Source: Candidatus Hermodarchaeota archaeon (GTDB lineage: Archaea > Asgardarchaeota > Hermodarchaeia > Hermodarchaeales > Hermodarchaeaceae). Taken from it: a DNA stretch of 22,274 nucleotides. The stretch lies in contig JAEOTB010000080.1 of NCBI GenBank assembly GCA_016840065.1, positions 1 through 22,274 of the forward strand. Direction: 5' to 3'. Below are positions 1 through 11,675 of this stretch, piece by piece; positions within the stretch are counted from its first letter, which is position 1, and every line of letters begins with the position of its first letter. The notes under the pieces were generated by a model. It had not been told where the DNA came from, made no database searches, and worked only from the letters and a program-made list of their open reading frames with translations. The position numbers and the translations under genes were made by a program.

Positions 1-238
1 AGTGACGTTTGTTCAGGGTTACCTTGTAGTCTTGCGAATCCGGTTGGAGGGCGACTTGAAGGGTGAATTTCTGGTCGCCAACGGTTACTTGGAAAACACC
101 CTTGTCTCGATCAACATCTGTGATTCGGACTGTGAACATGATTTCACTAACTGTAACTGTGAGTTTTGCCTCCCTGGAGTCTTCAACTGTAACCGGAATG
201 GTTTCGTCATTTAGTACGAGTTCGTATTTCCGAATCAA
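1..238 (-). CDS. Putative biotin carboxyl carrier protein, N-terminal beta-rich (BT-barrel-like) part; truncated at window edge
   Basis: Not in the ORF track. Manual translation from TTG at 238 (alternatives GTG 253, TTG 250; AGGTG RBS-like at 255-251): MIRKYELVLNDETIPVTVEDSREAKLTVTVSEIMFTVRITDVDRDKGVFQVTVGDQKFTLQVALQPDSQDYKVTLNKRH..., open to position 2. Repeating beta-strand pattern typical of BCCP N-termini, directly downstream of a carboxyltransferase. The biotinyl-lysine (AMKM) motif is not visible and would lie outside the window. Confidence 0.7.
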   Translation of the reverse strand, partial: MIRKYELVLNDETIPVTVEDSREAKLTVTVSEIMFTVRITDVDRDKGVFQVTVGDQKFTLQVALQPDSQDYKVTLNKRH

Positions 239-262
239 TTGGTTTCCCAACACCTGGTTATT

Positions 263-1774
263 TTAGTCCCCGCCCATGGCTTCGCGGCGCCCAGCCATAG
301 TCCATGGGCTGATTCTTTGAGGGCTACGACTACGGATAAGTGGTAAGCTTAATGTGTCTGGTTGCGCTTCAAGTAAAGTGGCAGTGATTGCAGCAAGTAG
401 GTCCGGAGTTATTTCTCCGAGGGCTTGTTTCTGCTTTCGATGATTGAAGAATTCCATTGCAGGTTGAGGGAAGAGGATGTAAGCAATGATGTCCTCGATA
501 TCACTTGTGATTCCCTTAAGCTCACGACGAGCTTTGGGTATTGCAGATTTTAACAAGTCAGCGGGACGGCATGTGATTGGTTCCTCGTCACCAATAATTA
601 CCCGTTGGATTTTCGCATCAATAGGGGCTGGAGGGCGACCATAATAGCCGCGCACATACTGCTTCACCTCTTCGGGGATTGTCTTATAACGCTCGCCCAA
701 AAGGACATTGAGTGTAGCTTGAGTGCCCACTATCTGACTGGATGGTGTTACCAACGGTGGATATCCTAGCTCTTGACGAACACGTGGCACTTCGTCTAAT
801 ACTTCGGGGAGCCTATCTAGCGCTTGCTGTTCTCGTAACTGGTTGATAAGGTTTGAAAGCATCCCGCCAGGAATCTGAAACTGCAAGACATTGGTGTCAA
901 CTCCTACAAAACCAGACTCAAAGTCGCAATAGCCTTGCCGTGTCTCTCGGAAATATTCAGCGATTTCCGACAACAATTCTAGGTCCAAACCAGGATCCCA
1001 TTGAGTGCCTTGCAGAACAGCAACCAGGGTTTCACAAGGAGGCTGGGAGGTACCAAGTGCTAGAGGTGAGATGGCAGTATCCACCACATCCACACCTGCC
1101 TGAATGGCTTCCAAGTAAGCCATACTAGCCATGCCGCTCGTGTAATGACTATGGAGTTGGATAGGGACACTGATTTCTTCTTTTAGACGGGTCACTAGCT
1201 CTCGGGCTACAAAAGGGCTCAATAAACCTGCCATGTCCTTGATACAGATTGAATCAGCATCCATTCCCTCTAGGGACTTTGCGAGCTGGACGAATGACTC
1301 TACATTATCTACAGGGCTAATAGTATAACAGATGCTAAGCTGGGCATGACATCCCACTTTTTTGACTGCCTTGACTGCCGTTCGCATGTTACGCGGATCG
1401 TTGAGCGCATCAAAGATACGGAAAATGTCTATCCCATTTTTCGCAGCCAGCTTGACAAACTTGCGAACCACATCGTCAGGATAATGTCTGTAGCCAACAA
1501 TGTTCTGACCTCGAAGAAGCATCTGGAGCTTGGTCTTTGGAAGGGCTTCACGAAGGTCCCTGAGCCGCTGCCAAGGGCTCTCCTTCAAGAACCGGAGTGG
1601 AGCATCAAAGGTTGCTCCGCCCCAAACCTCCATTGAGTGGAAACCTACTTGGTCCATCTTTTCTGAGATGGGGAGCATATCTCTTGTGTGCATCCGTGTT
1701 GCTAGAAGGGACTGATGAGCGTCGCGAAAGGAAGTATCAGTGATTTTTACCGGATGAACCGAAGTCGCCGCCAA
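263..1774 (-). CDS. pycB: Pyruvate/oxaloacetate carboxyltransferase subunit (PycB/OadA/transcarboxylase 5S family) without a biotinyl domain, with a C-terminal docking tail
   Basis: Motifs DTSFRDAHQSLLATRM, EVWGGATFD, LQMLLRGQN, IKDMAG (carbamylated Lys), HSH metal ligands and PPLVTPSSQIVG. No EAMKM motif. TTG start with GGAGGT RBS upstream. Confidence 0.92.
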   Translation of the reverse strand: MAATSVHPVKITDTSFRDAHQSLLATRMHTRDMLPISEKMDQVGFHSMEVWGGATFDAPLRFLKESPWQRLRDLREALPKTKLQMLLRGQNIVGYRHYPDDVVRKFVKLAAKNGIDIFRIFDALNDPRNMRTAVKAVKKVGCHAQLSICYTISPVDNVESFVQLAKSLEGMDADSICIKDMAGLLSPFVARELVTRLKEEISVPIQLHSHYTSGMASMAYLEAIQAGVDVVDTAISPLALGTSQPPCETLVAVLQGTQWDPGLDLELLSEIAEYFRETRQGYCDFESGFVGVDTNVLQFQIPGGMLSNLINQLREQQALDRLPEVLDEVPRVRQELGYPPLVTPSSQIVGTQATLNVLLGERYKTIPEEVKQYVRGYYGRPPAPIDAKIQRVIIGDEEPITCRPADLLKSAIPKARRELKGITSDIEDIIAYILFPQPAMEFFNHRKQKQALGEITPDLLAAITATLLEAQPDTLSLPLIRSRSPQRISPWTMAGRREAMGGD

Positions 1775-1999
1775 AGAGTAACCTCCGAGTAGATCTATTT
1801 TTCATCCACAAATATCGTGAATACCCTTTAAGCAGTTCCCCTATGCTATGACAATGAACAGGAATTCAGAAGTGACTAACATCCAAGTAGTCAACAAGGA
1901 CTATTTTGAAGATAGATTAATATCCCGTGACCGGGCAAATACGTTTGAAGGAGTATCTAACCATACACAACGGGTTAGACACTATTAGGAGAAACCAAG

Positions 2000-3217
2000 A
2001 TGAAGAAAGTCGTTAGAAGAGTTCCATCGGCTTTGCTAGTATTACTTCTGTTTGTCATGGTCTTTTCATTCACACCAAGTCAAAGTGTATCTTCGGATTT
2101 ACCAAGTGTTCCCATGGAAAGGTCTTCTGCTGAAAAGGCAATCGTAGTTACCGATGTTGACTTTTATCAGGTAAACTTCAACCTAAGTGGGTATGCTACA
2201 CCCAATTCGGGCTATGGCGTCATCGAGCTAGATTTTACTGGTTCTAGACAAATCGAATACCTGAACCTGAACTGCAATAATACGTGGGTCATTCAGAATG
2301 CTCCTCTCTTGAGCGTAGGGGGCGAAGAAGCAGGGCAATCACAGCGCTTCTGGTTCCCACTCGGGGTTGCGGACGGTGTCGAAGTGACCTACATAGAGTA
2401 CGGCTACACTCTCACAGAACAAATACAAGAAGCCGCTCCAGAGCGTAACAATGAGGCTCTAGTTTCTGACGTTGAATACGTGATATTTAATGGCGGGGCA
2501 GATATCCAGGTGGACCCAACATGGCCCCAGGCAACAATAGTCATCGGTGGCTTAATCACGGACACAATTCTCCATGTCAAGAACAATGTCCCGAATCAAG
2601 AGGCTGGACTACTCGAGTGCGCACCAACCGCTGTTTCCAACAGTCTACAATACCTAAACACCCACCACAGTCTAGGAATAAACGCGTCAGAATTGACCAT
2701 CGACAAGATGAAAGACGCTTGCAACTTCATGGCTGGTCTAGGATGCTACATCTGGCATAACGATGCAAGACCTGCTGGTATGAGGAATGCGTGGTATGAG
2801 GATAAAGCCGCTTACATACAGGATATAGGCTGGGCAATCACCACGAAGAGGATTGACCCTGCTGACATCAGCGATGTAATTGCAGAAATCGACGCCTGCG
2901 AAGATATCGAAATGGAGATAGCTGGTCATACGGTCACTGTCGTCGGTATGGCTGATCTCGGAGGCGGTAATTACTCTGTTACAATTCAACATGATACCAA
3001 TCAGGGCGCAGCAGGCGGGTGTGTTACTGAGACTGCCTTTTGGGACACCAACACTAACTCGTGGTCGGGTGCCCTTGCTGGGTGGGGTCTGAACTACTTC
3101 ATTGTCGAGTCACCGGTGAGTGTCGAAATCCCTGGCTTTCCACTACCTGCTCTACTAGTCGGACTAGTCATTGCTATTGCTCTTGTCCTATCTGTTCGTC
3201 GACGTAAAAGATTTTGA
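2000..3217 (+). CDS. Secreted, C-terminally anchored papain-like (C39-like) cysteine peptidase homologue with IPGF (Loki-CTERM-like) sorting tail
   Basis: N-terminal signal peptide (MKKVVRRV + hydrophobic stretch). Candidate catalytic set Q200, C207 (PNQEAGLLECAPTAVSNSL), H310 (GHTVTVVG), D332 (IQHD). C-terminus EIPGFPLPALLVGLVIAIALVLSVRRRKRF. AGGAG RBS. Confidence 0.65.
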   Translation: MKKVVRRVPSALLVLLLFVMVFSFTPSQSVSSDLPSVPMERSSAEKAIVVTDVDFYQVNFNLSGYATPNSGYGVIELDFTGSRQIEYLNLNCNNTWVIQNAPLLSVGGEEAGQSQRFWFPLGVADGVEVTYIEYGYTLTEQIQEAAPERNNEALVSDVEYVIFNGGADIQVDPTWPQATIVIGGLITDTILHVKNNVPNQEAGLLECAPTAVSNSLQYLNTHHSLGINASELTIDKMKDACNFMAGLGCYIWHNDARPAGMRNAWYEDKAAYIQDIGWAITTKRIDPADISDVIAEIDACEDIEMEIAGHTVTVVGMADLGGGNYSVTIQHDTNQGAAGGCVTETAFWDTNTNSWSGALAGWGLNYFIVESPVSVEIPGFPLPALLVGLVIAIALVLSVRRRKRF

Positions 3218-3244
3218 ACTACGCTTAAATCGAGTTCCAAATCT

Positions 3245-3260
3245 AGCTCAAGGCTGAGCT
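3245..3260. terminator. Short hairpin between convergent genes, possible terminator
   Basis: AGCTCA-AGGC-TGAGCT perfect 6-bp stem in the 58-bp gap between convergent stop codons. Only weak T tracts nearby. Confidence 0.25.
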
Positions 3261-3275
3261 TTCCTAGCCGTAGGT

Positions 3276-4838
3276 TTACAAGGGGATATTTCCGTGTTTC
3301 TTACGTGGGAGTGACTGTCGCTTTGTTCGGAGCATATCAAGGGCGGCTATGAGTCGAGGGCGGGTCACTGCTGGCTCGATTACCTCGTCGATGAAACCCC
3401 GCCTAGTCCCCGAATAGGGGTTAGCGAAGCGCTTACGGTATTCTGCAATCCTGTCTGCCCGTGTTTGCTCGGGGTCTTCTGATTTCTGGATTTCCCGGCG
3501 AAAAATGATGTTTGCTGCACCCTCAGGCCCCATCACAGCCAACTCACAGGTTGGCCAAGCATACACCACATCAGCACGCAAATGCTTCGAACCGAGAACC
3601 ACGTAGGCACCACCAATGGCTTTCCTCGTAATCACGGTAACTTTGGGTACCGTCGCCTCTGCATATGCGAAGAGAATCTTAGCACCGTGGCGGATAATAC
3701 CTCTATGTTCTTGATCGACACCAGGAAGGAAACCTGGTACATCCATGAATGTTAACACGGGAATGTTAAAGGCGTCACAGAAACGGACGAAGCGAGCGCA
3801 TTTGTCTGCAGCGTCGATATCGATTGTACCTGCTAGGTAGTTAGGCTGATTAGCGACAACACCAACTGGATGACCGTTTAAGCGGATGAAACCAACAACC
3901 ATGTTCTGGGCAAAGTGCTGATGAACCTCAAGGAACCTATGATTATCAGCGACACTAACAATGGCTTGTTTCATATCATATGGGATAGTTGGGTTATCTG
4001 GGAGGAGGTCATTTAGTTTTGGATCTGTGCGGCGCGGGTCATCTGTAGGCTCCTCATAAGGTGCATCATCCATATTATTAGAAGGGATATATGATAGAAG
4101 GTCTCGAATGATTTGAAGGCAATGGTCCTCGTTTTCTGCGGCAAACTGGGCGACACCGCTTTTCACGTTATGAGTCATAGCGCCACCAAGCTCCTCAAAG
4201 GAGATTTCCTCTCCAGTAACAGATTTAATGACATTAGGACCCGTGATGAACATGTGACTGGTCTTAGCTACCATTATTGTGAAGTCTGTAACAGCAGGGC
4301 TATACACTGCGCCTCCAGCACAGGGGCCCATTATGGCACTTATCTGAGGGATGACCCCTGAAGCTATGACGTTGCGGTAGAAGATCTCTCCATACGCCCC
4401 AAGACTAGCCACACCCTCTTGAATTCGGGCACCACCTGAATCATTTAACCCTATTACTGGTGCCCCGGTTTCCAGCGCTAAATCCATGATTTTACAGACC
4501 TTTTCGCCGAACATCTCACCGAGGGCGCCACCAAATACTGTGAAATCTTGGCTGAAGATGAATACAAGTCGTCCGTTAACAGTTCCGTAACCTGTCACTA
4601 CACCGTCGCCAGGTATCTTCCGTTTTTCCATACCAAATTCTGTGCTACGATGTTCAACGAGAGCGTCAAATTCTATGAAAGTACTCGGATCAAGCAATCG
4701 TTCTATCCTTTCACGAGCAGTCTGTTTTCCAGCCTTGTGCTGACGTTCAATTCGTTCCTTTCCGCCACCGAGTTTCGCCTTTTCTATCCGTTTTTGAAGC
4801 TCCTTCATCTTCTCTCGAAATACATCAGAAGGTACCAT
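3276..4838 (-). CDS. pccB: Acyl-CoA carboxyltransferase (propionyl-CoA carboxylase beta / methylmalonyl-CoA carboxyltransferase 12S / MmdA family)
   Basis: Motifs GKQTARERI, PGDGVVTG, QDFTVFGG, DSGGARIQEG, GPCAGGAVYSPA, DVPGFLPG, IIRHGAK, C-terminal KKHGNIPL; 520 aa. Confidence 0.95.
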   Translation of the reverse strand: MVPSDVFREKMKELQKRIEKAKLGGGKERIERQHKAGKQTARERIERLLDPSTFIEFDALVEHRSTEFGMEKRKIPGDGVVTGYGTVNGRLVFIFSQDFTVFGGALGEMFGEKVCKIMDLALETGAPVIGLNDSGGARIQEGVASLGAYGEIFYRNVIASGVIPQISAIMGPCAGGAVYSPAVTDFTIMVAKTSHMFITGPNVIKSVTGEEISFEELGGAMTHNVKSGVAQFAAENEDHCLQIIRDLLSYIPSNNMDDAPYEEPTDDPRRTDPKLNDLLPDNPTIPYDMKQAIVSVADNHRFLEVHQHFAQNMVVGFIRLNGHPVGVVANQPNYLAGTIDIDAADKCARFVRFCDAFNIPVLTFMDVPGFLPGVDQEHRGIIRHGAKILFAYAEATVPKVTVITRKAIGGAYVVLGSKHLRADVVYAWPTCELAVMGPEGAANIIFRREIQKSEDPEQTRADRIAEYRKRFANPYSGTRRGFIDEVIEPAVTRPRLIAALDMLRTKRQSLPRKKHGNIPL

Positions 4839-4947
4839 ACCAGATGCACCTAATCCTTTTCTAGCTCAATTGGAGACGCCACTACTTGTAACGTCTACAC
4901 TTAAAATCAATTGTTGCTCAGAGATAAAGCAGGTGGGGAAAGAATTG

Positions 4948-4974
4948 ATTAGGAAAACCTAATACTTTTTATTA
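4948..4974 (+). promoter_or_regulatory. Palindrome ATTAGG-N4-CCTAAT (DtxR/SirR/MntR-type box) abutting the BRE/TATA-like element of the rubrerythrin gene
   Basis: ATTAGGAAAACCTAAT at 4948-4963, followed by ACTTTTTATTA. GGAGG RBS at about 4996-5000 and ATG at 5010. Confidence 0.5.
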
Positions 4975-5009
4975 CCCTTTATTGACGAATCATTGGGAGG
5001 ATTATTACA

Positions 5010-5582
5010 ATGCAAAAAACTCTCGAGAACCTTACAAAAGCCTTCATCGGCGAAAGCCAGGCCCGAAACCGGTACTGGATGTACGCTAAAATCGCCAAGA
5101 AGGAAGGCTACGTTCAAATTTTTGAAATCTTCAGGGAAACAGCTGAACAAGAATATGAGCACGCCAGCACCCTATTCGAATTCATCCAGAAACTGAGAAA
5201 GAAAAGCGACGAAATTAAAGTCGAAGCTGAAGCTCCACTAATCCTTGGGGACACGAAGGACAATCTTCGCGCCGCCATCGCTGGTGAAACCTATGAGCAC
5301 ACCAAGATGTACCCCGAGTTCGCCAAGATTGCACAAAAGGAGGGCTACAATAAGATAGCAGCTCGACTCCGCGCCATTGGAAGAGCAGAGGAGCACCATG
5401 CTGAACGCTACCAGAAACTTCTCAACCAACTGGAAAAGGGCACATTCTTCGAGAAAGACACCGAAGTCGATTGGGTCTGCCTTGAATGTGGTTATGAGCA
5501 CCGCGGCACTAAGCCACCCAAGGAATGCCCGAGTTGCCACCACTCACACGCGTACTTCAAGTTAAAGTGCGAAAAGTACTAA
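5010..5582 (+). CDS. rbr: Rubrerythrin
   Basis: Di-iron four-helix motifs GESQARNRY, EQEYEHA, AIAGETYEH..MYP, EEHHAERY, plus a C-terminal rubredoxin-like CLECGY...CPSCHH. Confidence 0.96.
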   Translation: MQKTLENLTKAFIGESQARNRYWMYAKIAKKEGYVQIFEIFRETAEQEYEHASTLFEFIQKLRKKSDEIKVEAEAPLILGDTKDNLRAAIAGETYEHTKMYPEFAKIAQKEGYNKIAARLRAIGRAEEHHAERYQKLLNQLEKGTFFEKDTEVDWVCLECGYEHRGTKPPKECPSCHHSHAYFKLKCEKY

Positions 5583-5665
5583 GAATCCAGCATAGTTCAT
5601 CAAATAATTTGAGACAGGTCTGAAGAAGAAAGACCGAACAATAAATCGTAGATAGGTGATCGTAT

Positions 5666-5830
5666 ATGGCCCAGAAATACGTCTGTACCGCTTGCGGCTA
5701 CGTCTATGACCCAGAATTAGGGGATCCTGATGGAGGCATCGCCCCTGGCACAGCCTTCGAGGATATCCCCGAGGACTGGGTCTGCCCATTGTGCGGCGTA
5801 GGAAAAGACATGTTCGAACCAACCGAGTAA
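5666..5830 (+). CDS. rub: Rubredoxin (54 aa; below the ORF-track cutoff)
   Basis: Manual translation [54 protein letters not shown], with canonical CxxCGY..GDP..GT.F..WVCPxCG. AGGTGA RBS upstream. Confidence 0.97.
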
Positions 5831-5980
5831 AACAGGTTCACTAGGTTCTCAGAATGAGCAGAGGTAAGAAATACAGTTGAGAGCTCTGCTCTCACCTCTC
5901 CTCCATTATTTTTGTCTAATTATTCTTAGTTTAGAAAAAAACCTATCAGTATTTCAAGACAACACCCTTACCTATATTAT

Positions 5981-6008
5981 TTTTCTTAAGAAAAGAAAAT
6001 TATATATA
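5981..6008 (+). promoter_or_regulatory. Perfect 14-bp palindrome followed by a BRE/TATA-like element
   Basis: TTTTCTTAAGAAAA (5981-5994), then GAAAAT-TATATATA (5995-6008), about 35 bp upstream of ATG 6044. Confidence 0.45.
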
Positions 6009-6043
6009 CTTGGGGGACGATAGAATATACAGAGTTGATCCAG

Positions 6044-6298
6044 ATGGTACTCGACGATTGCCCCGGCGCAGCCGACCTCAAGAGACCAACTATAAAGTTC
6101 AAGACTTGCCCGAAATGTGGAGAAGAAATCGAATTATTCTCCGATGATGTCAAGATGGACTGCGAAGAATGCGGCTTCACAGTGTACAACGATGCTCTCT
6201 CTTGTGTTGAATGGTGCGAATACGCGAAGGAGTGTGTGGGTGAAGAAACCTACGAAACTCTAATGAAAATCATCAAGAGAAAAAAGGCAGAAACCTAG
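6044..6298 (+). CDS. Small uncharacterised 8-cysteine metal-binding protein (zinc-ribbon/rubredoxin-like site plus a second Cys cluster)
   Basis: 84 aa from ATG 6044 (alternative TTG 6035). Cys pattern C-x15-CxxC-x14-CxxC-x10-C-x3-C-x5-C. Lies between rubredoxin and desulfoferrodoxin. Confidence 0.8.
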   Translation: MVLDDCPGAADLKRPTIKFKTCPKCGEEIELFSDDVKMDCEECGFTVYNDALSCVEWCEYAKECVGEETYETLMKIIKRKKAET

Positions 6299-6354
6299 AG
6301 GCAAAAACTACTTACCACAGTTGTCGAGTAAAAACCGATAGGATATGAGTCAAG

Positions 6355-6732
6355 ATGACAGAATTATTGCAAGTTTACAAATGTAAGATTTGTGGAAATA
6401 TCGTAGAAGTGCTACACGCAGGACGTGGAACACTAGTTTGCTGCGGTCAGGCTATGCAACTACAAGAAGAGCAAACAGCAGATTACGCGACTGAGAAACA
6501 CGTTCCAGTCATTGAAGAGACAACAAACGGTATCCGAGTGACAGTCGGTTCAACACTTCATCCAATGGAATCAAAACATTGGATTGAGTGGATCCAAATT
6601 CTTGTAGATGGTAAAAGCTACCGTCAATTCCTTGAACCCGGAGCCAAACCTGAAGCCGAATTCGAAGTAAAAGGCAAAGAAATCATTGCCAGAGAATACT
6701 GTAACATCCATGGCCTGTGGAAAACTTCCTAG
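6355..6732 (+). CDS. dfx: Desulfoferrodoxin (2Fe superoxide reductase)
   Basis: Desulforedoxin centre I CKICGN...CCG. Centre [27 protein letters not shown]. Confidence 0.96.
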
Positions 6733-6748: not shown

Positions 6749-7561
6749 CTAGGAAGGATAATCAAGATCTCCAGACCAAAGGATTTGCTTCCCGGTGGGT
6801 GAGCTGATGATTAAGCTACCGTCGGGGGCAATATCCTTTGCGATACCCTGTACAACTCCTTCTGGTGTAGAGATAGTAACGCTTCTTCCCAGGTGATTGC
6901 AGAGCTTCCGCCAATGGGGTGCGATGGCAGGAAAGCCCTTGTCACGAAGCCGCAGATACCAATATTCTAACTGACCAATGAGATAACCAAAAAGTCTTGG
7001 TAAATCGATTGAGCGCTTCAGAGCCTCCTGAAGTGAGGATACCTTGGATTTCAAATCTTCTGGGAACTCGTCCAGAGGGGTGTTAACATTAACGCCTATA
7101 CCTACCACTGTGAATTCAACTTCACTTCCTTTGAGGCTTTGTTCGGCAAGAATCCCTGCCACCTTTAATTCACCAAGAAGCACATCATTAGGCCATTTCA
7201 AGCTAGCCTTCAGGCCATAGGCTTGTTGAAGAACCTTAGCAACTGCTACGCCTGCAGCCAGAGTGATGAGCTGTATCTCTGAGGGGGCTAGCATACTAGG
7301 ACGCAAGAGGAATGAGAAATAGAGCCCACCAAGCGGTGAGCGCCAAAATCGGGATAACCGCCCAACACCGGTTGTTTGGGTGTCAGCGAGAACGACAAGA
7401 CCTTCATCTTCACCTGCTTCCCCTCGAGCCTTCACAAAGGCGTTTGTGGAGGCTAGAACTCTGAAATGCTCAAGCCGCTTAAGAACAATGTGAGCAGCGT
7501 TAGAAAAAACATGCTGAAAGGGATCATCATGTGGCTCAATAGAAGCAGGCTGCTTGGCCAT
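6749..7561 (-). CDS. birA: Biotin--protein ligase (no HTH domain)
   Basis: STN, QTTGVGRLSRFWRSPLGGLYFS, KWPND, KVAGIL, GIGVNV and an SH3-like C-terminus. No N-terminal winged HTH. Confidence 0.93.
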   Translation of the reverse strand: MAKQPASIEPHDDPFQHVFSNAAHIVLKRLEHFRVLASTNAFVKARGEAGEDEGLVVLADTQTTGVGRLSRFWRSPLGGLYFSFLLRPSMLAPSEIQLITLAAGVAVAKVLQQAYGLKASLKWPNDVLLGELKVAGILAEQSLKGSEVEFTVVGIGVNVNTPLDEFPEDLKSKVSSLQEALKRSIDLPRLFGYLIGQLEYWYLRLRDKGFPAIAPHWRKLCNHLGRSVTISTPEGVVQGIAKDIAPDGSLIISSPTGKQILWSGDLDYPS

Positions 7562-7570
7562 GTAGAAACC

Positions 7571-7987
7571 TCAATAGGATGGCAGGTTGGATTCGTCTGC
7601 TCGCTGACAAAGCTCCAGCAGAACACCATTCGTGCTCTTTGGGTGAATAAAGGCGATCAGCATATTGCCTGCTCCTCGACGTGGCGTTTCGTCTATGAGT
7701 CTATAACCCTCTTCTCTTAACCGAGACAGTGCTTCCTCGATGTCTGGAACCTCAATCGCAACGTGATGAATACCTTCGCCTCTTTTCTCAATGAAACGAG
7801 CAATGACACCATCAGGGCTGGTTGATTCGAGGAGCTCAATACTTGAATCACCAATGGGTATGTGGACGGTCTTCACCTGTTGACTTTCCACAATCTCTGT
7901 GTGGTCAGGTTCTAAACCCAAATCCCTGTACAACTGCAGGGCGGCTTCTGCATCCTTAACTGCGATGCCAATGTGTGCAACACGCAT
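7571..7987 (-). CDS. mce: Methylmalonyl-CoA epimerase
   Basis: VOC-fold motifs HIGIAV, IELLE, FIEKRGEGIHHVA, AFIHPKSTNGVLLELC. Confidence 0.95.
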   Translation of the reverse strand: MRVAHIGIAVKDAEAALQLYRDLGLEPDHTEIVESQQVKTVHIPIGDSSIELLESTSPDGVIARFIEKRGEGIHHVAIEVPDIEEALSRLREEGYRLIDETPRRGAGNMLIAFIHPKSTNGVLLELCQRADESNLPSY

Positions 7988-9358: not shown

Positions 9359-11047
9359 CTAGAAAATCTGAGTGGGTTTATACTCGCCAAATACTCTTCG
9401 AAGTGTGTTGCATATCTCACCCAGAGTGGCTTTACACTCGACTGCATGGAGGATTGGTGGAAGCAAATTATCGGTTCCCTCCGCAGCTCTTAGTAACCCC
9501 TCCAGTGCTGATTCCACAGCTTTTGCATCTCTACTGCTGTGTAACCGTTCTAGCTTCAGTTTTAGTGCCTTCTCAACTGCAGGATCGACTCTGAGATAAT
9601 CGATAGACCGTTCATCCTCCTGTGCAACAAAGCGGTTGACACCTACCACCGTGCGCCTCTCTGTCTCGATTTCCTTCTGGTAACGGTAAGCGCTTTCCTG
9701 AATTTCACGCTGGATGTAGCCTGTCTCAATAGCCCTTAACACACCACCCATCTGGTCGATACGCTCCAAATAGGCTTCAACACCTTCCTCAATCTCGTAT
9801 GTTAGGTTCTCGATGAAATAGGAGCCAGCGAAGGGGTCAATCGTATTTATGACGCCACTTTCATGTGCGATGATTTGTTGTGTGCGGAGTGCAATTGTAG
9901 CCGCCTTTTCTGTAGGAAGAGCTAACGCTTCATCCATGGAGTTCGTATGGAGGGATTGTGTACCCCCCAGAACAGCTGCCAGTGCCTGCATCGCTACACG
10001 TACAATGTTATTTTCTGGTTGCTGCGCGGTAAGGCTACATCCTGCTGTTTGTGTATGGAAACGCAAGAGCCATGAGCGGGGGTTTTCTGCCCCAAAACGT
10101 TCCCGCATAATACGATACCAGAGACGTCGAGCAGCACGAAACTTGGCTACCTCCTCGAAGAGGTCGTTGTGCGAGCCAAAGAAGAAGGATAACCTGGGAG
10201 CAAACTCGTCCACCTTCAAACCAGCATCAAGAGCTGCTTGTACGTATGTGATGCCATTTGCGAAGGTGAACGCTAGTTCTTGAATAGCAGTGCTGCCTGC
10301 CTCACGGATGTGATACCCGCTTATGCTTATTGTGTTCCAGCGGGGCAACTCGGTACGACAGTAGGAAAATGTATCAGTGATTAGCCTCATGGAGGGTCCT
10401 GGCGGGAAAATGTAGGTGCCGCGGGCGATGTACTCTTTGAGGATGTCATTTTGAATTGTGCCCCGAAGGATATTCGGTTCTACATTCTGTCGCTTGGCGA
10501 TAGTTATGTACATGGCAAGTAGGACCGATGCAGGTGCATTAATGGTCATGCTGGTGCTTACCTTGTCGAGTGGGATATCCTGGAACAATGTTGCCATATC
10601 CTCAACCGAGGTAATGGCTACACCGCACTTGCCAACTTCACCTGCTGCCATCGGGTGGTCTGAGTCATAGCCTATCTGTGTTGGTAAATCAAAGGCTACG
10701 CTGAGTCCGGTCTGCCCCTGCTCAAGCAGATACCTGTAGCGTTCGTTGGTCTGTTCAGCAGTACCAAAACCCGAATACATACGCATTGTCCAAAGGCGTC
10801 CTCGGTACATTGTAGGGTAGACTCCTCGCGTAAAAGGAGGTTCTCCGGGAAACCCTAAATCCCGCGTATAATCAAAATCCTTCAGATCCTCTAGTGAATA
10901 CAAGCGATTGACTGGTTGACTGGAGGTGGTAACAAACTCTGCGGGGCGTTCAGGGACCTTCTCAAGAAATGGTCGAAGTACCTTGTCTTCCCATTCGCGG
11001 CGGGCATCAGAATCCGTCTTCCGTTTTCTTCGTTGTTTTTCAGGCAA
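9359..11047 (-). CDS. mcmA1: Methylmalonyl-CoA mutase, substrate-binding (large) subunit of a split enzyme
   Basis: [21 protein letters not shown] (Tyr specificity residue), [12 protein letters not shown] (Arg specificity residue), [20 protein letters not shown]. No DxHxxG B12-binding domain. Confidence 0.95.
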
Positions 11048-11111: not shown

Positions 11112-11675
11112 CTAGTATTCGACACCGCGCCGAGCAGATATTCCCTTCTGATAGGGGTGCTTCACTTCTATTATCTTTGAAACCAAGTCAGCTAGTTTCA
11201 TGATGGCTGGTCTTGCGTAGCGACCGGTTAAGACCAGCTCCATTTGGGGTGGGCGGTTGTTGATTAAGTCAATGACAGAATCCTCTGTGATTAATCCCCA
11301 GTCGATGGCACAGTTTACCTCGTCAAGAATCAGGAAGTCCACCTCTCCTCCATCCATTATCTCCTTGGCGTGTCGAAGAGCTTCCTCTGCAAACCTGATG
11401 TCTCGTGGGTCAGGGTTGTGTCGGTCAACAAACTCTGGGCGTCCAAACATCCGAATCGTGAAGTTGGGTAGCCGCTTTACTGCTTCCAGTTCTCCATACT
11501 TGATTTGCCCTTTCATAAACATAATAACATGAACACGAAATCCATGACCGGCAGCTCGAAGCCCAAGGCCAAGGGCAGCGGTTGTTTTTCCTTTTCCAGA
11601 GCCTGTGTAGACTTGAACGAGGCCTTGGTGTGTTTCTTCTTGTTGACCGTTTGCTGTTGTCTGCATTTTGCACAC
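11112..11675 (-). CDS. cobO: Cob(I)alamin adenosyltransferase, CobA/BtuR/CobO type
   Basis: VYTGSGKGKTTAALG, FMKG...YGE, LILDEV, ELVLTGR, ADLVS..KHPY..G..ARRGVEY. The start could be ATG 11666. Confidence 0.94.
   Translation of the reverse strand: MCKMQTTANGQQEETHQGLVQVYTGSGKGKTTAALGLGLRAAGHGFRVHVIMFMKGQIKYGELEAVKRLPNFTIRMFGRPEFVDRHNPDPRDIRFAEEALRHAKEIMDGGEVDFLILDEVNCAIDWGLITEDSVIDLINNRPPQMELVLTGRYARPAIMKLADLVSKIIEVKHPYQKGISARRGVEY

Follow-up and report, generated by a model that had tools for sequence, protein, structure and literature searches.

The window, by which we mean the whole stretch of 22,274 nt that was analysed (contig JAEOTB010000080.1 of a Candidatus Hermodarchaeota archaeon), carries on one strand the genes of an adenosyltransferase, a methylmalonyl-CoA mutase (MCM), an epimerase candidate, a BirA-type ligase, a PccB-type and a 5S-type carboxyltransferase and a biotin carrier (BCCP) that begins with a BT barrel. 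The features are as follows.

2-253, minus strand: N-terminal 84 residues of the BCCP, BT beta-barrel (Pfam PCC_BT); the gene runs off the start of the contig
263-1774, minus strand: 5S/PycB-type pyruvate carboxyltransferase, 503 residues, lacking a biotinyl domain (PYC_OADA, HMGL-like, NF006761)
281-364, minus strand: hook of the 5S tail, residues 471-498, with Trp491 at nt 302-304 and Arg496, both invariant
365-406, minus strand: Ala-rich helix of the 5S tail, residues 457-470, PDLLAAITATLLEA, proposed central helix of a split BT domain; limits set by eye
2000-3217, plus strand: gene of the opposite strand between the 5S and PccB genes
3276-4838, minus strand: PccB/MmdA/12S-type acyl-CoA carboxyltransferase, 520 residues (Carboxyl_trans)
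6749-7561, minus strand: biotin protein ligase, BirA type (BPL_LplA_LipB and BPL_C)
7571-7987, minus strand: methylmalonyl-CoA epimerase candidate, glyoxalase fold (Glyoxalase_4, 84 bits)
9359-11047, minus strand: methylmalonyl-CoA mutase, large subunit (MM_CoA_mutase, 764 bits)
11112-11675, minus strand: ATP:corrinoid adenosyltransferase, for loading of the B12 cofactor (CobA_CobO_BtuR, 210.8 bits)

In the Hodarchaeota and JGI clusters the ligase gene is found at the equivalent place, and the epimerase candidate is likewise a conserved neighbour. On a sister contig and in relatives, genes for MCM, the B12-binding subunit and MeaB come after these genes. The 5S and PccB genes are adjacent in relatives, whereas in the window the plus-strand gene stands between them. 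The contig nearest to the window belongs to a Hermodarchaeota MAG (93% protein identity), and in the window a neighbouring gene carries a Loki-CTERM sorting domain in an NCBIfam profile search; an earlier note, made from the DNA letters only, had supposed an Asgard archaeon, which both observations bear out.

In Pfam, the 5S protein matches HMGL-like (74 bits) and PYC_OADA (190 bits) only, and no Biotin_lipoyl match is found in its 503 residues. Direct reading reveals the motifs FRDAHQS, IKDMAG and HSHYTSG, with the metal and carbamyl-lysine motifs present. The best NCBIfam match is the PycB domain model NF006761 (771 bits, residues 8-454), while the score against the 5S equivalog NF008984 (561 bits) lies below the cut-off of 827, showing that the protein is not of the P. 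shermanii orthologue type. Since the NCBIfam PycB/OadA/5S models cover residues 8-454 and stop there, about 50 C-terminal residues are left unexplained. This tail (residues 453-503, nt 418-266) reads GEITPDLLAAITATLLEA...ISPWTMAGRREAMGGD; the earlier note had described both the missing biotinyl domain and the distinct tail, with coordinates and sequence as found here.

Across 44 aligned tails of relatives, A461/A462 in the helix never vary, nor do Trp491 and Arg496, so that the tail is no chance feature. Its helix resembles the BT-like helix of Choi 2016 (PMC5059739) in being small and hydrophobic, and the chain ends 7 residues after Arg496, where strand 1 would follow in a BT domain made of one chain. 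With hhalign, the tail profile matches the C-terminal tails of the biotin carboxylases (BCs) of split acyl-CoA carboxylases (93%, E 3e-7), and the helices of the two tails are aligned with each other. A Chloroflexia BC, for instance, ends in ...ISAVAAVLLAHQ...PSAWKVAGRWEEMGD, and the 5S protein of the window in ...LAAITATLLEAQ...ISPWTMAGRREAMGGD. The W..(G/A)R motif also occurs on BC tails encoded beside PccB genes and is found on none of the PycA tails. Pfam ACC_epsilon weakly matches 4 of the 44 tails of 5S proteins (best E 0.002), the window's own tail giving no match, and PCC_BT gives the tail no score; among PDB sequences, the tail profile retrieved no alpha chain of PCC or MCC. Judged by the profile alignment, the 5S tail is homologous to the BC tails of split acyl-CoA carboxylases, and the earlier reading of it as a BT-type helix and hook stands on this alignment together with the weak ACC_epsilon matches.

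The BCCP reading frame (253-2, minus strand) has a GTG start 9 nt past the 5S stop and runs for 84 residues to the contig end. The fragment scores 24.4 bits against Pfam PCC_BT (gathering score 23.5), and the match spans profile positions 31-100 of 126, which correspond to the barrel without the helix and hook. A complete BCCP of 195 residues (P0005), 70% identical to the fragment, is encoded on the syntenic sister contig C66. It consists of a barrel, a linker and a biotinyl domain with EAMKM, and is followed by the MCM and MeaB genes. EAMKM and Biotin_lipoyl (67-69 bits) are present in this copy and in all relatives, and the sister copy suggests that the BCCP of the window also has the biotinyl domain. 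The AlphaFold2 model of P0005 has a pLDDT of 85.6 and displays eight strands over residues 6-92, of which the window fragment spans about seven and a half. The top 45 Foldseek matches of this barrel model are all BT domains, with TMq 0.76-0.77 and rmsd 2.3-2.8 Å relative to human PCC. An independent aligner (VIA) places first the BT domains of yeast ACC (Z 7.8) and PaMCC (Z 5.8). PCC_BT is found by Pfam in 23 of 47 homologues. Compared by hhalign with the N-termini of BCCPs encoded beside tailed BCs, the BCCP N-terminus gives 96.6% (E 5e-10), and by this comparison the barrel is homologous to the BCCP N-termini of split acyl-CoA carboxylases. The earlier prediction of about eight strands opening this gene is thus matched by the model of the full-length sister copy, and that of a BT barrel joined to a BCCP by the PCC_BT score, the Foldseek matches and the EAMKM domain of the sister copy.

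The PccB-type gene lies upstream of 5S on the same strand, as had been noted before, and its product covers the whole Carboxyl_trans profile (661.9 bits, Pfam). Its score against TIGR01117 mmdA is 867.7 bits, under the cut-off of 998.8. The gene context suggests methylmalonyl-CoA as its substrate.

We searched the genomes of the family for a partner that would charge or discharge the carrier in another way. Biotin_carb_C, for the biotin carboxylase, and OAD_beta, for the OadB/MmdB pump subunit, each have matches in 0 of 19 family genomes (the source genome and 18 others), and BT-BCCP is present in 17 of the 19. The Biotin_carb_C profile matches 13 of 14 control genomes and 39 of the 151 genomes of the phylum, and OAD_beta likewise matches its positive controls. 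As the family genomes are 72-91% complete and the source genome 84% (with 5% contamination), the case for a missing BC is built on all 19 genomes together and not on the source genome alone. No membrane subunit is seen in any related cluster examined. These counts agree with the earlier proposal of a BC swapped out.

A tailed 5S gene followed by an N-terminally extended BCCP is found in other Asgard lineages, Bathyarchaeia, Chloroflexota and Acidobacteriota; the arrangement is widespread and not peculiar to Hermodarchaeota. A BCCP with a long N-terminal extension directly follows 22 of 23 hook-tailed 5S genes. Only two 5S genes scored hookless by the motif pattern precede such a BCCP, and both show a hook by eye that the pattern missed. 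Within 5 kb of the hook-tailed genes, PccB is encoded in 16 of the 23 cases and BC in one, and several of the 7 loci without PccB stop within a few kb of the 5S gene. The cluster with PccB, MCM, epimerase and BirA is conserved across phyla. Fused PycB relatives have no hook tail and lie beside BC genes. In a Methanofastidiosia contig (L031), a tailed 5S lies together with one BCCP and a BC whose tail is nearly identical, and there is no PccB within 8 kb, meaning that the tail need not imply a PccB partner. A Chloroflexia cluster (L044) has the order PccB-BC-BCCP-5S-BCCP.

With a biotin carrier and two carboxyltransferases, and neither BC nor pump, a transcarboxylase is the only possible full cycle. 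The product of the locus is, in our view, probably an ATP-independent methylmalonyl-CoA:pyruvate transcarboxylase (EC 2.1.3.1 chemistry) in which 5S replaces the BC and which is built through a BT domain formed in trans. In the assembly that we infer, including its stoichiometry and activity, PccB would move CO2 from (S)-methylmalonyl-CoA to the biotin of the carrier, and the 5S-type TIM-barrel enzyme would hand it to pyruvate to give oxaloacetate, the reverse also being possible. The eight-stranded barrel at the N-terminus of the carrier would close round the Ala-rich helix at the 5S C-terminus, so that two chains would make up a BT domain which in PCC and MCC belongs to a single chain, and the biotinyl domain would swing on a linker of some 30 residues with predicted disorder. 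Exposed between helix and barrel, the hook with Trp491 and Arg496 would plug the 5S-BCCP unit onto the PccB core, much as the hook mounts the biotin carboxylase in PCC, MCC and GCC. The proposed docking draws only on homology with GCC and MCC, where the beta subunit buries a hook Trp (Jurado 2015). Asgard archaea had already been annotated with a transcarboxylase function (Imachi 2020); the function was therefore known beforehand, and it is the mode of assembly that has no description in the literature searched.

The P. freudenreichii subsp. shermanii enzyme (12S, 5S and 1.3S; EC 2.1.3.1) probably catalyses the same reaction as the Asgard proteins, with which it has three functions in common: a PccB-family acyl-CoA carboxyltransferase, a pyruvate carboxyltransferase with a TIM barrel and no BCCP, and a biotin carrier that is small and separate. 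Both systems have no ATP-using subunit and a pathway context with MCM and epimerase. In the Propionibacterium enzyme, the first 50 or so residues of 1.3S form an N-terminal peptide that glues 5S and 12S together. No such peptide is seen here, the N-terminus of the carrier being a 90-residue BT barrel. The 1.3S protein has no barrel and shares only the biotinyl domain with the Asgard carrier (query 118-195), and the alignment of P. shermanii 5S with the tail profile reaches no further than FPQVAPVFFEHRAEGP, with no helix or hook match, which indicates that the means of assembly differ. An assembly unlike that of 12S/5S/1.3S had been anticipated in the earlier note, and indeed the catalytic and biotinyl parts are shared and the tail and barrel are not.

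The BT domains of PCC, MCC and geranyl-CoA carboxylase (GCC) alpha subunits (3N6R, 7YBU, 3U9S; PF18140, PF21139) have an eight-stranded barrel right before the BCCP, as here, together with a hydrophobic helix, a Trp-bearing hook and a PccB-family beta subunit as partner. However, the Asgard elements lie on two polypeptides, split exactly between hook and strand 1, and the helix and hook are on the pyruvate carboxyltransferase instead of the biotin carboxylase. The same plug-and-socket split is seen in three-subunit acyl-CoA carboxylases (L012, L113-L127; Asgard and bacterial), with helix and hook on BC, the barrel on BCCP and PccB encoded alongside in most loci; there the plug is carried by the ATP-dependent BC, whereas here it is carried by 5S. 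To our knowledge, no structure of this split form is available.

The two-subunit pyruvate carboxylase of Methylobacillus flagellatus (5KS8) offers a precedent for a BT-like domain assembled in trans from an Ala-rich helix at the C-terminus of one subunit and beta strands beside the BCCP on another, as proposed here; the domain is essential, its loss abolishing the holoenzyme (Choi 2016, PMC5059739). It also has the 5S-type carboxyltransferase fold in common with the Asgard system. In M. flagellatus, BC carries the helix, two PycB chains contribute four strands each, and neither a hook nor a PccB is involved; in the Asgard proteins, the carboxyltransferase subunit itself carries the helix, along with a hook, and all eight strands come from one chain. 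Compared with PycA plus PycB or with OadA, no BCCP is fused to the carboxyltransferase, and BC and OadB are missing from the 19 family genomes. The actinobacterial epsilon subunit (ACC_epsilon, PF13822), for which a role as stand-in for an absent BT helix has been proposed (Lombard and Moreira 2011), is also a small helix-containing piece; the likeness is weak, and the subunit is a free-standing protein, unlike the 5S tail.

A rather unlikely alternative retains the transcarboxylase and lets tail and barrel only tether BCCP to 5S, as a non-covalent counterpart of the fused CT-BCCP found in PycB/OadA; in that case the hook would belong to the small domain and not dock on PccB, the contact with PccB being transient or through other surfaces. 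The Methanofastidiosia cluster, in which a tailed 5S, a tailed BC and a BCCP lie together with no PccB nearby, fits such a tether, as does the tighter link of the tail to the downstream BCCP than to PccB (22 against 16 of the 23), although several of the PccB-less loci stop close to the 5S gene. The hook itself speaks for docking: the BC tails of two-subunit pyruvate carboxylases, which make no PccB contact, have the Ala helix without the Trp hook, which is present on BC tails encoded beside PccB genes, and in GCC and MCC it is a hook Trp that touches the beta subunit. It is improbable that 5S and BT-BCCP form a split PycB of an ATP-dependent pyruvate carboxylase, with the BC on an unassembled part of the genome and PccB in a separate enzyme. 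The PycB domain model as best NCBIfam match, the pairing of such a 5S with BC in the Methanofastidiosia relative and the incomplete source genome would suit this reading, but the 19 family genomes have no Biotin_carb_C match, against the control and phylum counts given above, and the cluster is kept with PccB, MCM, epimerase and BirA across phyla. Most improbable is that these are the alpha and gamma-type subunits of a Na+-pumping oxaloacetate and/or methylmalonyl-CoA decarboxylase with its membrane beta subunit encoded elsewhere, as relatives annotated 'oxaloacetate decarboxylase alpha', PccB-type genes annotated mmdA and high scores for TIGR01108 oadA and TIGR01117 mmdA could suggest, since both scores are under the equivalog cut-offs, OAD_beta is found in none of the 19 genomes and the related clusters have no membrane subunit.

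Beyond the transcarboxylase itself, it is conceivable, as a tentative extension, that the tail, with its helix and hook, and the barrel-BCCP make up a plug-and-socket module that is portable and mounts either BC or 5S on the same PccB core. Mixed particles might then arise where both tailed subunits coexist with barrel-BCCPs, as in Chloroflexia L044 and Methanofastidiosia L031, and could alternate between carboxylation driven by ATP and transcarboxylation without it, or act as a pyruvate carboxylase of three parts. In such a series, the Asgard enzyme would stand at the pure 5S end.

Contig C63, whose first 22,274 bases make up the window, belongs to a metagenome-assembled genome (MAG) estimated to be 84% complete with 5% contamination. 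The genes of the putative transcarboxylase pathway, and those inserted among them, are arranged as follows.

11112-11675, minus strand: ATP:corrinoid adenosyltransferase
9359-11047, minus strand: methylmalonyl-CoA mutase (MCM)
7571-7987, minus strand: epimerase candidate with glyoxalase fold
6749-7561, minus strand: biotin protein ligase (BirA)
6355-6732, plus strand: desulfoferrodoxin (oxidative-stress set)
around 6035-6298, plus strand: small Cys-rich ORF (oxidative-stress set)
5010-5582, plus strand: rubrerythrin (oxidative-stress set)
3276-4838, minus strand: PccB/12S-type carboxyltransferase
2000-3217, plus strand: secreted surface protein of 405 aa (the Loki-CTERM protein), bearing a signal peptide and, at its C-terminus, a Loki-CTERM sorting domain
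263-1774, minus strand: 5S/PycB-type carboxyltransferase
253-2, minus strand: carrier gene, first 84 codons, starting 9 nt past the 5S gene and reaching the contig end

The pathway genes are interrupted by plus-strand insertions, namely an MFS transporter, the oxidative-stress set, and the Loki-CTERM protein. The latter, for which no Pfam family was matched, is encoded between PccB and 5S on the opposite strand and is also present on sister contig C120; in relatives, the PccB and 5S genes are either adjacent or separated by other genes. The oxidative-stress set (5010-6732) is found in identical composition and at the identical place within the pathway cluster of a Hodarchaeota contig (L009). 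Both the Loki-CTERM match and the nearest contig, which comes from a Hermodarchaeota MAG with 93% protein identity, place the organism in the Asgard archaea, as the earlier note had supposed.

In line with the first reading, a domain search of the 5S protein detects no biotinyl domain, only HMGL-like and PYC_OADA; the curated PycB/OadA/5S models end at residue 454. The sequence of the C-terminal tail (residues 453-503) was also confirmed. Alignment of 44 tails from 5S-type proteins of about 500 aa (Asgard, Anaerolineae and other Chloroflexota, Methanofastidiosia) reveals a common pattern consisting of FPQ.A...R, an Ala-rich helix (..AAI.A..), a variable spacer, and sPWklAgR. No variation occurs among the 44 at the two Ala residues of the helix or at the positions of Trp491 and Arg496 in window numbering. 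The window's tail alone has no Pfam match, and ACC_epsilon is weakly matched by four of the 44. Searching PDB sequences with the tail profile retrieved no PCC or MCC alpha chain, the only hits being the FPQVA...R segment of P. shermanii 5S and chance matches. When 1.8 billion representative sequences were searched exhaustively by phmmer with the tail (64 residues), the outcome was uninformative, with four matches of which one was a true relative and the rest low-complexity-like; a word-indexed search returned just two close relatives.

In the split acyl-CoA carboxylases of bacteria and of those Asgard genomes that encode a biotin carboxylase (BC), the BC subunit ends in a tail of the same design. 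The clearest counterpart is a Chloroflexia BC, the end of which reads ISAVAAVLLAHQ...PSAWKVAGRWEEMGD. In a profile-profile comparison, the 5S tails match the BC tails with 93% probability (E 3e-7, 42 columns). None of the solved BT domains was matched by the tail directly, so its assignment as a BT helix/hook, which the earlier note had proposed, rests on this profile match and on the motif. Some Asgard BC subunits (L114, L115, L117, and L121) end in tails 80-125 residues long with two Trp motifs (SPWQKIGTWGRE, joined in three of the four by SPWxRxGxW), which may represent a duplicated hook.

The partial carrier ORF of the window scores above the Pfam cut-off for PCC_BT over profile positions 31-100 of 126, corresponding to the barrel without the helix and hook. 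AlphaFold2 modelling was applied to the complete carrier of the sister copy described below (alignment of 61 sequences) and, separately, to its first 95 residues (47 sequences). Either model displays eight strands within residues 6-92, matching the roughly eight beta-strand segments first noticed, with a domain pLDDT of 85.6. Between this barrel and the biotinyl domain, some 30 linker residues have a pLDDT below 50. When the domain model was compared with the PDB using Foldseek, the first 45 matches were all BT domains of PCC, MCC, or ACC, with a TM-score of 0.76-0.77 and an rmsd of 2.3-2.8 Å over 86-91 columns for human PCC. A Foldseek-independent scan of 48,161 chains ranked the BT domain of yeast ACC first (Z 7.8), followed by that of P. 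aeruginosa MCC (Z 5.8), with generic barrels below Z 5. The model of the whole carrier aligns with the BT-BCCP part of PCC alpha chains over about 190 columns. Together, the Pfam match and the fold matches bear out the claim that the downstream ORF opens with a BT barrel. Among 47 homologous N-termini, PCC_BT is matched by 23, BT_MCC_alpha by 10, and ACCA_BT by 4. The shorter N-terminal extensions (about 65-70 aa) of bacterial, most Bathyarchaeia, and Methanofastidiosia carriers have no PCC_BT score in Pfam, save one weak match of 15.3 bits; they would nevertheless be barrels, judging solely from a profile match in which three such sequences are included. The Asgard carrier barrel also matches the N-terminal domains of the biotin carriers (BCCPs) that accompany tailed BCs (96.6%, E 5e-10, 72 columns). 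With the homology of the tails, this indicates that both halves of the device are common to BC-based and 5S-based systems.

A syntenic second copy of the locus, with 78-84% nucleotide identity to window positions 1-5296, is carried by contigs C66 (1-8555) and C120 (1-4695) of the same bin. It comprises MeaB, the small and large MCM subunits, BT-BCCP, 5S, the Loki-CTERM protein, and PccB, with protein identities to the window of 95% for PccB and 70% for the BCCP N-terminus. Here the carrier gene is complete and encodes 195 aa, in which a linker rich in Thr, Ser, and Pro connects the barrel to a biotinyl domain with the EAMKM motif; downstream lie the genes for the MCM large subunit, the B12-binding subunit, and MeaB. 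Given the bin contamination of 5%, this copy probably stems from a co-binned sister population rather than being a paralogue.

Transcarboxylase is the textbook ATP-free biotin enzyme. Consistent with such a function, the genome itself has no match to Biotin_carb_C or OAD_beta, and neither was found in any of the 19 genomes of the family, 17 of which encode BT-BCCP; across the phylum, BC is found in 39 of 151 genomes. That no BC or OadB-type pump partner was found in these genomes supports the earlier proposal, as a carrier with two carboxyltransferases and neither BC nor a decarboxylating pump can only move CO2 between two substrates. The conserved neighbourhood (MCM, epimerase, BirA, PccB, 5S, BT-BCCP, MCM, B12 subunit, MeaB) fits the methylmalonyl-CoA pathway and is present in contigs from Hod-, Hermod-, and Thorarchaeota, other Asgard archaea (labelled 'Promethearchaeota'), Bathyarchaeia, Anaerolineae, and Acidobacteriota. 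In a gene-order survey of 86 loci, where the hook was scored by a motif pattern, 22 of 23 hook-tailed 5S genes directly precede a carrier with a long N-terminal extension; within 5 kb, PccB is found for 16 of the 23 and BC for one. Tail-less 5S genes in these loci never show this arrangement, two apparent exceptions having a hook that the pattern missed. A different order is conserved in Clostridia/Oscillospiraceae loci (L067-L071, L079, L086, L088, L089, L099, L103, and others): PccB is followed by a short BCCP of 130-150 aa and, about 1.2 kb further on, by a tail-less 5S/OadA of 465-475 aa. One possibility is that the intervening gap holds a pump beta subunit gene.

Transcarboxylase chemistry seems here to follow the architecture of PCC/MCC, BC being replaced by the pyruvate carboxyltransferase. 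The carrier barrel would close round the C-terminal helix of 5S, tethering BCCP to it, and the hook would, by analogy, fix the 5S-BCCP unit onto PccB; the long linker would then let the biotinyl domain travel back and forth between the active sites of PccB and 5S. In GCC/MCC a hook Trp is buried in the beta subunit (Jurado 2015), and the PCC hook is described as important to holoenzyme interactions (Choi et al. 2016, PMC5059739). When one PccB chain, the 5S tail, and the first 100 residues of BCCP were predicted as a complex, without controls, the score was 0.02 against a mark of 0.32, a result that speaks neither for nor against docking. The alternative that the tail only tethers BCCP, docking on PccB not being its role, retains appreciable weight because of a Methanofastidiosia cluster (L031:8001-11630). 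There, three consecutive genes encode a 5S with a tail, a BC whose tail (..AAAVAYVMA..GSAWKLAFR..) is nearly identical, and a single BCCP extended at its N-terminus; no PccB gene occurs closer than 8 kb, which weakens the docking step. This cluster might encode a pyruvate carboxylase made of three parts, with the same plug on both enzymes. A Chloroflexia MAG (L044:1291-6978) has the order PccB, tailed BC, barrel-BCCP, tailed 5S, and second barrel-BCCP, in which frameshifts, perhaps due to errors in sequencing, interrupt PccB and the second BCCP. This cluster is a candidate for a hybrid carboxylase/transcarboxylase built on a single PccB core.

To our knowledge, structural detail is available only for the Propionibacterium transcarboxylase assembly. 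The P. shermanii 5S and 1.3S have only their catalytic and biotinyl parts in common with the proteins described here, in agreement with the claim of an assembly unlike 12S/5S/1.3S. The transcarboxylase function is not new (Imachi et al. 2020). The new part would be the assembly principle, since no earlier description of a transcarboxylase assembled through a BT domain, or of a transcarboxylase cryo-EM holoenzyme, was found in the literature searched (subscription journals outside its scope). It offers a concrete case of biotin-enzyme evolution in which catalytic modules are exchanged on a conserved docking device, and would account for two parts that annotation pipelines leave unnamed, the 5S tail (50 residues) and the carrier extension (90 residues); in databases the 5S-type proteins appear as 'pyruvate/oxaloacetate carboxyltransferase' and the carriers as 'biotin carboxyl carrier protein'. 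Since this gene order recurs in Asgard archaea, Bathyarchaeia, Chloroflexota, and Acidobacteriota, it may represent the common form of the enzyme in anoxic sediments. It also bears on the propionate fermentation of Asgard archaea, counted among their ancestral traits by Imachi et al. (2020).

In contrast to the hook-bearing tails of 5S and of BC in split acyl-CoA carboxylases, BC subunits of two-subunit pyruvate carboxylases have an Ala helix without the Trp hook or are tail-less, in agreement with the trans-assembled, hookless BT-like domain described by Choi et al. 2016 (PMC5059739). None of 15 fused PycB-type relatives is a natural one-chain 5S-helix-hook-barrel-BCCP fusion; those from Clostridia combine an AccB-type N-domain with BCCP, and in the rest the linkers are short. 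In Clostridia, Desulfosporosinus, and Actinomycetota MAGs (L077, L093, L094, L098, L110), PycB-type proteins of 617-745 aa are encoded beside tail-less BC genes, and their C-terminal part resembles a complete AccB, with an AccB-type N-segment and an EAMKLMNEIE biotinyl domain.
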